64,000 nt of DNA from Methanobacteriota archaeon (GCA_019347805.1 JAHWKR010000001.1:88881-152880), one strand, 5' to 3'; numbered from the stretch's first letter, positions 26,410 to 29,769 are shown. Numbers and translations are program-made. The notes: generated by a model not told the origin, from the letters alone.

Positions 26410-27972
26410 CTATGACCCGCGTCCCGCCGCTCTCCCGGCTTTGCCGAGCCGGTCGGCGAGGATGCCCATGGCGGTCGCGGTCTCGAGGCCCACCTCGGCG
26501 CCGGTGATCTCGTATTCGCCGGCGCAGGCGTTCTTGACGCGGTTCGGGAGCCCTTTGGGCCCGATGCCCATGATGACGCATACGGGTCCGGCGTGCACCT
26601 GTTCCTCGATGGCGATGCGGCGTGTCGGGTCGGGCTTCTCCGTCGCGGCGACCCAGGTGCCACGGGCGCGCCAGGCGGCGGGCTCTTCACCGGGATCCAT
26701 GGGGAGCGCGTGGACACGGCGCGCCTTGGCGAGGTCGACCACCCAGGGATGGCCGCCGATGCGTGTCTCGCGCGCGGTGCGCTCGACGAGTTCGGTGAGT
26801 GGGAGGGGGAAGCCGACGAGGACGAGGTCGAGGCCGAATGCGGCGCAGAGCGGTGCGGCGCGGGCGACGGCGCGGAAGTGGATCTCTTTGACGCCGCCGG
26901 TGTAGGTGTTGAGGAGGGCAAGGGAGTGGCCGCTCGGTGCGGTAAGGCGGCCGCTTTGGCGTTGCATCGGGACCGGCTTCGATCTCTTCTCGGGCGCCCC
27001 TTTTTTCCCGCCGGGGGTCTCGCCGCGGAGGTAGGCGCGGGCGGTCTCCAGCTTGCCAAGCAGCCGGTCGGCGTGGGTGGGGGGCACTTCTGCGACGAGC
27101 CGTTCGACATCGTCGAAGAGCGCGCTCGCGCGTTCTTTCTCCCCGAGCCGGTCCGCCTGTGCGCCCAGGGCGAGCGCGACGTCGGCGCGCACGCCGGGCG
27201 GTTCGGTCTCGATGGCCCGCTCCAACGGGTCGAGCGAGGACGGCACGACGAGGGTCTGGACGATGGCGCGCCAAAGGTCGATGCGGCCGCGGGCGTCGCT
27301 GCGACCGGTCGTCGCCGCGAGACGTTGGGCGACATCCGCCATCGTCGACTCGACGAGCGCATGGGTCGAAGCGATTGTCGCGATCTGGTGGTGCAGGAAC
27401 GCCATCAAGCGCGCGGACAGTTCGGGGTCGTCGATGGCGCGCAGGCGGGCCTGCCAAGCCCCGGCCGTCTCGAGGTCCGCCGGGGTCGTGAAGGCCGCGC
27501 GCAGGACCGCCTTCGCGTCGTCCCGTTCGGTACCTCGGTTCAAGAGCGCGCGTTCGAAGAGGGCGACCCGCAGCGGGTCGGGGACGTGCTTGGCGGTCTC
27601 GCGCAGGCCCACCGAGAGCGCCTCGCCGTCGGGGAGCGCGGTGAGGCGGTCGACGAAGGGCGCGGCGGCGGTCGCGGCGCCGGCGTTGTCCAACGTTTTC
27701 ACGATGACCGGGACGGTCTCCGCGACCTGGCCTTCGCGCTCGACCTGGCGGATGCGGTCGACGGCCACCTCGAGCGCTTCGTTCCGCGTCTCCGTCGTCG
27801 CCTCGGCGTGCGTGGCGATGGCGACGAGCGCCTCGGCGGCGCGGGCGCGGTCCGCCATGAGCTTGGCGTCACGGATGAGCGGGTGGGGGTCGCTCCGCTG
27901 CTCTTTCAATCGGCGCAGGAGTTCACGCAGTTCGGTCGGGCCGTGGGCGCCTGGCGACACGGGTCCGCGCAA
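26410..27972 (-). CDS. Hypothetical protein: helical repeat N-terminal region plus C-terminal SPOUT-like (DUF531-like) domain
   Basis: C-terminal about 150 aa with Gly-rich loop VIMGIGPKGLP and ITGAEVGLETATAMGIL reminiscent of trefoil-knot methyltransferase motifs; inference only. Confidence 0.35.
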   Translation of the reverse strand: MRGPVSPGAHGPTELRELLRRLKEQRSDPHPLIRDAKLMADRARAAEALVAIATHAEATTETRNEALEVAVDRIRQVEREGQVAETVPVIVKTLDNAGAATAAAPFVDRLTALPDGEALSVGLRETAKHVPDPLRVALFERALLNRGTERDDAKAVLRAAFTTPADLETAGAWQARLRAIDDPELSARLMAFLHHQIATIASTHALVESTMADVAQRLAATTGRSDARGRIDLWRAIVQTLVVPSSLDPLERAIETEPPGVRADVALALGAQADRLGEKERASALFDDVERLVAEVPPTHADRLLGKLETARAYLRGETPGGKKGAPEKRSKPVPMQRQSGRLTAPSGHSLALLNTYTGGVKEIHFRAVARAAPLCAAFGLDLVLVGFPLPLTELVERTARETRIGGHPWVVDLAKARRVHALPMDPGEEPAAWRARGTWVAATEKPDPTRRIAIEEQVHAGPVCVIMGIGPKGLPNRVKNACAGEYEITGAEVGLETATAMGILADRLGKAGRAAGRGS

Positions 27973-28038
27973 GGGGGGCGGGGGAAAAGGATTGCCGGCG
28001 CTGACACGTGCGGCCGGAGCCTCCCCGCGACGGGGACG

Positions 28039-29244
28039 CTACTTGTTCGCCTTCTCCCATTTGCGGAACTGCCTGAGGTTCTCCATGACGGAGACGCCGT
28101 CCTGGTAGTCGGGGAAGTTCTCCTTGAGCCAGTCGAGGCTGGTCTCGGACAGCGTCCGGTTGTCAAGGTACTCGCGGAACAGGTCGTCGCTCGTGAGCTG
28201 GACCTGGCCGGTCTCGCCGTCGGCGAAGACGTGCCCGGCGGCGTAGTAGCGCTTCGGGTCGTTCCGGGCGCCGCTTCCGCGTGAGACGAGGCTTTCGACC
28301 TTGCCCTTGTTGATGAGCGTCGAGACGTAGGAGGGCGCCTTGCCGATGGCTTCGGCGATCTCCTGGATGGTGACGCCGGGGTTGGCCTCGATGACCTCGC
28401 GCACCTGGTCGGAGACGCTCGGGCCGCGGTCCTTGCGGCGGAACTGTTCCTCGATCTCGCGCTCGGCCTGGGCGATGCGTTTCTGTTCGACCTGGCGCCG
28501 GAGCCCTTCGTAGGTGAACCAGCGCTTCGGGTCGCCGCGCACGCCGCGGCCGCGCGATTGGACGCCGGGGATGCCCTCTTTGAGGAGTTTGGAGATGTAG
28601 GGGACGTGGTTCTCGAGCCGGTCGGCGATATCCTTCGCCGTGAGCCCGGGTTCCTTGGTGACGACCGCCTTGATCTTCTCGGGGATCTCGGGGTCGGGAC
28701 CGCGTGTCGATTTGCGGCGCGCCTCGGTGCGCAGGATGGCCGCGCGTTTCGGTTCGTCGATGGCCGCCTGCTCCTCTTCCGTCTTGGCCGGTTCGAGGTG
28801 GTCGGAGACCGGGGCGAGCTCGGGGCGGTAGTTCACGGGGTAGAGCCGGATGTCCTTGCGGCGGGTCGCGCCGCGGCCCATGCGGACGCCCGGGATCTTG
28901 CCGTTCTCGACGTCGTTGTAGATGGATTGGTAGGAGGCGGAGACCTTGAGGCCCAGTTTGGACAGGGTGATGCCGGGCTCGGAGGTGACCAGTTCCTGGA
29001 TCTTTTGCCGGCGTAGGTCGGCGCCGTAGCGGGCGCGGTGGGGTTTCTTGCGGAGGTAGATCCTGAAACTCTTGCCGCGCGCCTTGACCTTCTTGAACGT
29101 GTCTTCGTTCTGGTCGATGGTCGCCTCCACCTTGTCCGGGTCGAGGTCGAGCGCGGTCGCGATGTTCGCGATCGTCGTGCCAGGGTTCTCCAACACATGC
29201 CGTTGGACCTGACGTTTCAGGGATGAGTCAAGGATCTGTTCCAT
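28039..29244 (-). CDS. DNA-binding protein composed of four tandem winged-helix (wHTH) repeats
   Basis: Four repeats of the pattern xIxxxVxxxPGxTxxxIAxxL...Y(V/I)SxLIxxGK(V/I)xxxxSRGxGxRxDPKRY(Y/F), seen directly in the translation. Confidence 0.6.
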   Translation of the reverse strand: MEQILDSSLKRQVQRHVLENPGTTIANIATALDLDPDKVEATIDQNEDTFKKVKARGKSFRIYLRKKPHRARYGADLRRQKIQELVTSEPGITLSKLGLKVSASYQSIYNDVENGKIPGVRMGRGATRRKDIRLYPVNYRPELAPVSDHLEPAKTEEEQAAIDEPKRAAILRTEARRKSTRGPDPEIPEKIKAVVTKEPGLTAKDIADRLENHVPYISKLLKEGIPGVQSRGRGVRGDPKRWFTYEGLRRQVEQKRIAQAEREIEEQFRRKDRGPSVSDQVREVIEANPGVTIQEIAEAIGKAPSYVSTLINKGKVESLVSRGSGARNDPKRYYAAGHVFADGETGQVQLTSDDLFREYLDNRTLSETSLDWLKENFPDYQDGVSVMENLRQFRKWEKANK

Positions 29245-29695
29245 ACGCCTGCCCTTCCGACTTACGTACTCCTACTTGTAGCTGACGGTCCGGGGCGGGT
29301 CCCGGAGTGGCATGCTTGGCACACCGGCCCATGGAGGCTCTCCCTAAGGAGAGCGGACACCTGGACCGCATCACCGGATTGGGGGTACACGTCGGACGGC
29401 TTTACCCGTTCATGCTATATGAATCGTTTTATCGAAGCCGAGTCCGGCGGGTCGGCGGGGCCCCAGGAAAGAGCGGCGCGGAGGCACGATATGTCCTCCC
29501 CATGCCAAGTATCAGCAAAATGGACATCCAGACCCACAGGGCCGAGCTTGCCTGACGGCGGGCGGAGAGGATGTGCAAGCAAGTGAGGTAGAAGCCGTCG
29601 AACTCAGAGTCCAGCGAAATGACTCGGAGGGAGCGAGCGCAGCGAGCACCCGGCGAGGACACGAGCCTGCCGCCCACGAAGTGGCGGCAGCGAAG

Positions 29696-29769
29696 TGGAC
29701 TCGTCGGGATTCGAACCCGAGGCCTCGTCCATGCCAAGGACGCGATCTACCGGTCTGATCTACGAGCCC
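29696..29769 (-). tRNA. tRNA-Ala (anticodon GGC)
   Basis: Manual cloverleaf: GGGCTCG acceptor with G3:T70 wobble (Ala identity), D-arm GATC/GATC, anticodon loop TTGGCAT, T-arm CTCGGGTTCGAATCCCGAC (revcomp of forward strand), discriminator A; CCA not encoded; 8-bp trailer hairpin at 29666-29690. Confidence 0.85.

Follow-up and report, generated by a model that had tools for sequence, protein, structure and literature searches.

Our analysis of a 64,000-nucleotide (nt) stretch of archaeal chromosome (GCA_019347805.1, JAHWKR010000001.1:88881-152880; hereafter, the window), which has 66% G+C and whose host is an uncultured, G+C-rich archaeal relative of Thermoplasmatota, revealed that two adjacent genes with the look of an unusual pair do not form a conserved system. 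Gene A (28039-29244, minus strand) encodes a tandem series of four winged-helix modules together with an acidic three-helix C-terminal domain, and gene B (26410-27972, minus strand) encodes a SPOUT protein of the DUF531/COG1772 family that carries an alpha-solenoid at its N-terminus. Their adjacency is a chance juxtaposition confined to this one genome. The overall reading that we favor, and consider probable, is that A and B are independent, the first a DNA binder and the second an RNA methyltransferase, and that a lineage-specific insertion or deletion would have brought them side by side. The original prediction, made from the DNA of the window, had put the two forward as a combination not recognized as a described system; at that level, there is nothing new here, as the proposed system does not exist. 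A is notable mainly for its rarity and because two of its four modules are under extreme constraint, and B is notable for extending a predicted RNA-modifying enzyme with a large solenoid arm.

The lack of linkage between A and B is seen from both sides. In three loci carrying homologues of A (L002, L003, and L090), the gene order is purF, tRNA-Ala(GGC), A, tatD, tbp, and OMPdecase/RraA; a fourth (L001) keeps the order through tbp, with one unrelated 189-amino acid (aa) open reading frame (ORF) between A and tatD, and a fifth (L091) shows A, tatD, tbp, and OMPdecase/RraA. The A-tatD-tbp arrangement is kept in these five relatives, in which A is 71-79% identical, and three of them also show purF upstream. 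Neither a DUF531 gene nor a cation-efflux (CDF) gene lies between A and tatD in any of the five, a sixth relative (L092) carries A in a different context, and a DUF531 gene adjoins A in none of the six homologues with readable downstream DNA (L001, L002, L003, L090, L091, and L092). From the side of B, an A-like ORF within 3.5 kb was found in 0 of 84 DUF531 loci, which were drawn from GTDB species genomes and metagenomes and searched by tblastn and by hmmsearch with the family profile (E ≤ 0.01). A CDF gene was likewise found at 0 of the 84, and the closest homologues of B (L004 and L089, 46-47% identity) have unrelated neighbors. In the genome studied here, B and the CDF gene fill an insertion/deletion (indel) spot between A and tatD.

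One alternative is that A and B make up a functional two-gene module or operon in which, for example, A regulates or targets the SPOUT enzyme. The two do lie on the same strand, as originally stated, although the spacing then given as 67 nt measures 66 nt from the TTG start of B or 78 nt from its GTG start; further, no clear archaeal TATA box precedes B, and both proteins are poorly characterized. Set against this are the absence of DUF531 beside A in all six readable loci, the absence of A-like ORFs from the surveyed DUF531 loci, and the disparity in distribution: the long form of DUF531 is widespread in Thermoplasmatota and Hydrothermarchaeota and A has only 10 homologues, so B works without A almost everywhere. 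A joint module also sits poorly with the presence of a hairpin and T-run past the stop codon of A, and we regard it as very unlikely. As read from its sequence, the A-B spacer (27985-28035, minus strand) carries the hairpin CCCCG-TCG-CGGGG (28023-28035) just past the stop codon of A and a run of four Ts (27985-27988), and it could terminate transcription of A, initiate that of B, or do both; separate transcription of A and B is plausible. Three points temper the case for independence. A consensus terminator scan of the spacer, which is of the bacterial type where the host is archaeal, returned nothing; co-transcription is possible in this genome, given two genes on one strand only 66-78 nt apart; and the A family comprises only 10 sequences, most of them on short contigs, with linkage read from local neighborhoods.

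Gene A runs for 401 aa from an ATG start, and its product is identical to MBW3581553.1, which NCBI lists as "hypothetical protein KY455_00490 [Euryarchaeota archaeon]". It contains four internal homologous repeats, namely R1 (residues 9-68; 29041-29220), R2 (residues 76-137; 28834-29019), R3 (residues 186-247; 28504-28689), and R4 (residues 276-337; 28234-28419), all encoded on the minus strand. When each repeat was compared with the whole protein by blastp, R3 matched R4 most strongly (E = 4e-12), followed by R1-R4 (6e-6 to 1.5e-5) and R2-R4 (8e-6), with weaker matches for R2-R3 (2e-5) and R1-R3 (0.03). The R3/R4 duplication is the youngest in the gene and can still be traced at the nucleotide level, where direct repeats are spaced 270-273 nt apart. 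The sequence motif first proposed for all four repeats, PGxT...SRGxGxRxDPKRY, is complete in R3 and R4 only, whereas R1 and R2 are more diverged. The AlphaFold model, built with a 10-sequence family alignment, gives each repeat the helix-helix-helix-strand-strand topology of a winged helix at a predicted local distance difference test (pLDDT) of ~70-90, for example with helices 7-19, 25-31, and 36-45 and strands 50-54 and 60-64 in R1, and helices 186-197, 203-210, and 214-223 and strands 228-231 and 241-244 in R3. Between the modules lie a disordered acidic stretch (145-182) and a long helix (245-272) that joins modules 3 and 4. The C-terminal domain (residues ~350-401; 28042-28197, minus strand) is modeled as helices 352-362, 367-376, and 386-400 and has no Pfam match at cut-off; it carries a conserved motif, DDLFREYLDNRTLS, and the acidic region to which it belongs (residues 336-401) has an isoelectric point (pI) of 4.6.

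Family and fold searches agree with the repeats in placing A among winged-helix proteins, so that the four consecutive modules of the original prediction are upheld by blastp, AlphaFold, Pfam, and Foldseek together. Against Pfam, the whole protein matches HTH_24 (E = 9e-10, 38.4 bits; cut-off 21.9) and MarR_2 (E = 3e-6, 27.6 bits; cut-off 27), with HTH_3 also among its sequence-level helix-turn-helix (HTH) matches and HTH_17 under its cut-off (E = 0.0024). The best Pfam stretch of the protein (284-313) lies in R4, the sole module to pass by itself (HTH_24, 24.0 bits against 21.9), and R1-R3 are assigned as winged helices because of their homology to R4 by blastp. The excisionase model TIGR01764 reaches 31.2 bits against a cut-off of 28.8 on the whole of A, a score summed across repeats with no single stretch that passes; more generally, NCBIfam gave only sub-threshold or summed-repeat matches. 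In Foldseek comparisons with the PDB, the best matches were multi-winged-helix chains (RPC62/C82, the SelB C-terminus, UFL1, TFIIIC, and ScpB; E = 8e-6 to 8e-4, TM-scores 0.1-0.3, identity 9-17%), followed by MarR-type regulators (MarR, SlyA, and ZitR at probability 1.00). The low TM-scores indicate a generic architectural resemblance, and a sequence search of PDB chains with the whole protein returned only the "CAP repeat" chain 8vd6.

The rarity of A is evident from searches of very different kinds. A word-indexed search of 5.8 billion protein clusters yielded a family of 10 sequences, all at least 71% identical, and when 1.84 billion representatives were searched exhaustively with a HMMER profile, a single cluster for the family emerged. 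Beyond that cluster, the profile reaches only tandem-HTH arrays of 2-8 repeats each (E = 1e-13 to 1e-3), among them the "DNA binding protein" of Bacillus phage AR9; such arrays are unrelated to A in the sequence and number of their repeats and are uncharacterized as well. Exact peptide-pattern scans, which are not exhaustive, detected no relative of A in 185,579 GTDB species-representative genomes or in 2.9 million IMG/VR viral contigs. The literature on tandem winged helices in archaea offered only unrelated systems (ESCRT-II, Lhr, and RNA polymerase I and III subunits). The searches also turned up metagenomic proteins (P0037, P0038, P0039, P0040, P0049, and P0050) with 5-8 near-identical tandem winged-HTH repeats that belong to unrelated sequence families, some of them (P0049) with a helicase-like N-terminal part joined to the array; it appears that arrays of this kind have originated on many occasions.

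Within its small family, A is under unusual constraint. Residues 69-145, which cover module 2, are 97% identical to those of L001-L003, and residues 171-250, which cover module 3, are 88-94% identical; in the same comparisons, the neighboring proteins reach 74-83% (PurF), 61-73% (TatD), and 35-42% (TBP). Synonymous differences occur at 23-47% of the identical codons between A and L001-L003. Purifying selection on modules 2 and 3 is therefore very strong, their residues being near-invariant despite synonymous change, and in module 2 this near-invariance takes in the basic stretch that precedes it. Variation within the family falls in the third helix of module 1, in the linker and the helix that connects modules 3 and 4, and from module 4 onward; the third helix of a winged helix is the usual recognition position. 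A is thus an orphan family, very small and strongly conserved, of the tandem winged-helix nucleic-acid binder kind. The original prediction had named outcomes that would count against it, among them that A and B would lack conserved linkage and that A would prove to be an ordinary annotated regulator; the first is what we found, whereas the second is not, as A belongs to a very small orphan family.

The region upstream of A is also conserved. A block, ACCGTCAGCTACAAGTA (29273-29289, minus strand), lies 29-45 nt before the ATG of A, and a like block, with a consensus of roughly CCGNCANNTNNAAGTA, recurs at an equal distance from the start codon in each of the six upstream regions set side by side (the window, L001, L002, L003, L090, and L091). 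It is a candidate promoter element, resembling a TFB recognition element (BRE) with a TATA box, or a candidate operator. Because of this conserved element, A probably has its own promoter, from which it would be transcribed irrespective of B. A second AT-rich, TATA-like element, GATAAAACGATTCATATAG, is found at ~29407-29432 (minus strand), ~170 nt before the ATG of A, and TTTATAC or TTTATAT boxes occur in the corresponding intergenic region of relatives L001-L003. This element could provide A with an alternative promoter, from which the transcript would have a long leader, or could serve a small unannotated transcript.

What A does can be approached through its fold, its charge, and its family matches, which suggest that its role would be that of a transcription regulator or an architectural factor. 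We infer that it binds double-stranded DNA, the property that argues for binding being its basic charge (pI 9.5 overall; ~10 in modules 1-3, with 10.3 in module 2). It would do so as a monomer, placing several heads on an extended site or on several sites; the indispensable contacts would come from modules 2 and 3, and modules 1 and 4 would be freer to vary. It may also wrap DNA in a chromatin-like manner, as originally suggested. In this respect, A differs from MarR proteins, whose HTH_24 kinship its module R4 shares: those proteins are dimers with one winged HTH per chain, whereas A has four in one chain. It can reasonably be put forward as a lineage-specific DNA-organizing or regulatory factor, and it would be a compact natural case of four reading heads per chain. 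Some observations pull away from this assignment. The winged helices among the Foldseek matches of A also bind RNA (SelB) or proteins (ScpB, ESCRT-II, and UFL1); the predicted TM-score (pTM) of the model is 0.27, and the mutual arrangement of the domains is undefined; and R1, R2, and R3, each scanned alone, fall below every Pfam cut-off.

Accordingly, a different role for the array deserves weighing, namely that A is an RNA-binding or protein-scaffolding winged-helix protein instead of a DNA-binding regulator, which might bind structured RNA as SelB does or form part of a transcription or translation complex. Its closest structural company, from RPC62/C82, the SelB C-terminus, and UFL1 to TFIIIC and ScpB, would fit such a role, as would the Arg/Gly-rich wing loops (SRGRGVRGDPKRW), and, in modules 2 and 3, such extreme conservation suits a conserved macromolecular partner better than a set of operators. 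Several of these proteins share with A the stringing of winged helices on one chain: four in the SelB C-terminus, which binds SECIS RNA, four extended ones in RPC62/C82 of RNA polymerase III, two in ScpB, and several in UFL1. However, none has a sequence relationship to A, which is without their GTPase, coiled-coil, or partner-binding parts; TM-scores of 0.1-0.3 at ~10-15% identity fit a generic tandem winged-helix architecture, and the matches at the sequence level are to DNA-binding HTH families (HTH_24, MarR_2, and HTH_3). A also adjoins a tRNA gene in six of seven testable loci, with tRNA-Ala(GGC) upstream on the same strand in the window, L001, L002, L003, L090, and L093, but this adjacency is missing in L092 and looks like synteny as opposed to a functional tie. 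On balance, an RNA- or protein-directed role seems unlikely, although it is the main alternative to DNA binding.

A bolder proposal is that A represents an undescribed single-chain four-winged-helix family that is confined to one uncultured Thermoplasmatota-related lineage and serves there as a core nucleic-acid-organizing factor, possibly abundant, either as a chromatin or architectural protein or as a part of the basal transcription machinery peculiar to that lineage. Such a role would be in keeping with modules 2 and 3 being more conserved than PurF, TatD, and TBP, with the fixed place of A beside a tRNA gene and near tbp, and with its best structural matches including RPC62/C82 of RNA polymerase III and TFIIIC. 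We hold this proposal to be improbable, more so than the RNA- or protein-directed role, and continue to favor a DNA-binding regulator or architectural factor.

Gene B tells a separate story. The ORF encodes 520 aa from a TTG codon, and NCBI places the start at a GTG codon (27960), giving 516 aa, which is the likelier start because it fits the N-termini of homologues better. Its product matches MBW3581552.1, a "DUF531 domain-containing protein", with 100% identity over 99% of the 520-aa ORF. Residues 350-509 (26446-26925, minus strand) match PF04407 (E = 7.5e-32, 111.3 bits; cut-off 25) over profile positions 3-167 of 170, and Foldseek relates this domain to AviRb, TrmJ, RlmB, and TrmH at probability 1.00 (TMt 0.41-0.64). 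The SPOUT-like C-terminus recognized in the DNA at the outset is therefore confirmed by both family and fold, and the helical-repeat N-terminus noted with it is a solenoid of 17 helices. This N-terminal domain (residues 1-315; 27028-27972, minus strand) has its helices at residues 11-315, with pLDDT mostly >90, and is followed by a disordered linker and the alpha/beta domain, in an AlphaFold model with an overall pLDDT of 91.5 and a pTM of 0.81. It has no Pfam family match, and by Foldseek it resembles generic solenoids only, such as TPR/LGN, Pumilio/Puf4 (TMt 0.36-0.49), and Ton1535.

The relationship of B to known SPOUT enzymes is one of fold more than of sequence. The SpoU/TrmH class (TrmJ, TrmH, RlmB, and AviRb) shares its alpha/beta fold at a root-mean-square deviation of ~4-6 Å, but identity is only 14-19%, Pfam SpoU_methylase stays far under its cut-off (E = 0.17), and motif 3 of B reads LETATAMG. 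RlmB and AviRb carry L30e-like or other N-terminal RNA-binding domains, whereas B has the solenoid instead. There is a weak profile-level link to Tm1570 (COG4752): searched as a profile, the SPOUT domain of B picks up the Tm1570-type domain in two knotted chains, 8ri0 and 8b1n (E = 0.006), and, at E = 0.87, TM_1570 itself (3dcm). A search of PDB chains with the whole sequence of B gave nothing useful. The similarity of fold implies that B would contain a deep trefoil knot, which would shape its cofactor pocket.

DUF531 corresponds to COG1772, an annotated and uncharacterized archaeal family that Tkaczuk et al. 2007 (PMC1829167) placed in the SPOUT superfamily. It was described there as consisting of the SPOUT domain only, as coming mostly from hyperthermophilic Euryarchaeota, and as represented by PF0315 of Pyrococcus furiosus, and its prediction as an RNA 2'-O-ribose methyltransferase rests on an Arg pair and a Ser/Thr of the C-terminal helix (PMC1829167). 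The C-terminal 160 residues of B fit the family model end to end and keep both features. Among 26 long forms, and again among 19 forms both long and short, R371 never varies and R367 shows conservation of 90% or more, and T498 and T500 lie within LETATAMG. The four-residue spacing of R367 and R371 equals that of R32 and R36 in PF0315, a correspondence drawn from spacing and helix position, not from direct alignment. From family membership and these conserved residues, B is most likely an S-adenosylmethionine (SAM)-dependent RNA 2'-O-ribose methyltransferase, as predicted for the family. It would methylate its substrate with SAM as the donor, and the ~315-residue solenoid would dock that substrate, whether RNA or a ribonucleoprotein. 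Counting against a firm assignment, the searchable literature holds no experimentally characterized member of DUF531.

The solenoid and disordered linker that B adds to the described SPOUT-only form make it an architectural variant of DUF531, and one that is common to many metagenome-assembled genomes (MAGs). The N-terminal domain is present in the 26 aligned long-form homologues and at many MAG loci; the long form is common in MAGs of Thermoplasmatota and Hydrothermarchaeota, and MAGs of Archaeoglobi, among others, match the SPOUT domain only. The G+C content of B is 0.72, raised at codon positions 1 and 2 and not at position 3 (GC3), because the protein is rich in Ala, Arg, Gly, and Pro. Horizontal transfer of B, considered on the grounds of composition, is not indicated, as its GC3 is ordinary.

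Across the 84 DUF531 loci, clustering of ORFs revealed no general conserved neighbor. Two arrangements were nevertheless observed. First, eIF1A, RIO1 kinase, a KH protein (Pno1/Dim2-like), and long-form DUF531 form a tight same-strand cluster in 2 of the 84 loci, L005 (3964-7539; soil metagenome) and L022 (~3689-7644; Hydrothermarchaeales MAG), which belong to distant lineages; this linkage hints that DUF531 may have a role in small-subunit rRNA maturation. Second, a gene for the RNA 2'-phosphotransferase Tpt1/KptA lies directly downstream of short-form DUF531 on the same strand in 19 loci (in L061-L082 and others, with Archaeoglobi MAGs as the source of those inspected), with the ORF of L074 (6408-7139), for instance, matching PF01885 at E = 2.7e-35. 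The neighborhood of DUF531 thus offers weak hints of RNA metabolism, and both linkages supply testable hints that the family modifies rRNA or tRNA.

A further explanation for the juxtaposition, suggested in the original prediction by the location of the pair past tRNA-Ala, is that the region is an integrated or degraded mobile element with A and B as its cargo. Transfer RNA genes are common integration sites, gene content varies on either side of the tRNA-A unit, and A weakly matches the excisionase model TIGR01764 and phage HTH families. Yet, as that prediction had itself stated for integrases, neither an integrase nor a recombinase was found among the genes called in an 18.8-kb locus that reaches from 7.6 kb upstream of A to 10 kb downstream of it. 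The 22-nt 3' end of tRNA-Ala has no second copy in the window at up to 3 mismatches, and GC3 shows no anomaly (0.905 in A, 0.877 in B, and 0.81-0.89 in their neighbors). An integrated element is unlikely because of these three results. Further, searches of PHROGs, PADLOC, and BFVD gave generic HTH matches only and no phage or defense-system family, and the IMG/VR scan described above detected no relative. A stands at a constant chromosomal position beside tatD and tbp in five relatives and is under strong purifying selection, and B and the CDF gene, patchy as they are, lack marks of mobility. The setting past the tRNA gene is one of conserved synteny, and we consider an element there highly improbable, leaving insertion or deletion within an otherwise stable gene order as the explanation we prefer for the meeting of A and B.

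Around this pair, the window holds tbp (23999-24565, plus strand), tatD (24566-25414, plus strand), and the CDF transporter gene (25463-26407, plus strand; Pfam Cation_efflux, E = 1.7e-37), which is convergent with gene B. On the other side are tRNA-Ala(GGC) (29695-29769, minus strand; ARAGORN, and Rfam RF00005 at 62.4 bits), 450 nt upstream of gene A, a gene for a small signal-peptide protein of 174 aa (30142-30666, plus strand), and purF (30676-32148, minus strand); at E ≤ 1, Rfam found no RNA family in the region besides the tRNA. Two indel hot spots flank the tRNA-Ala-A unit. The A/tatD gap holds B and the CDF gene here (25463-27972), the 189-aa ORF in L001 (2902-3471), and nothing in the others, and the purF/tRNA gap holds the signal-peptide protein here (30142-30666) and an ion channel with UPF0060 in L090 (1920-3235). 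The TBP encoded in the conserved slot by tatD is only 35-42% identical to its counterparts in L001, L002, L003, L090, and L091, and is either fast-evolving or a non-orthologous paralogue in the same slot. Finally, a G+C-rich hairpin, CTGCCGCC-ACTTCGT-GGGCGGCAG (29667-29690, minus strand), begins 5 nt past the 3' end of tRNA-Ala and sits inside an inverted repeat; its perfect 8-bp stem (CTGCCGCC / GGCGGCAG) with one added G-U pair may be a processing or termination structure.

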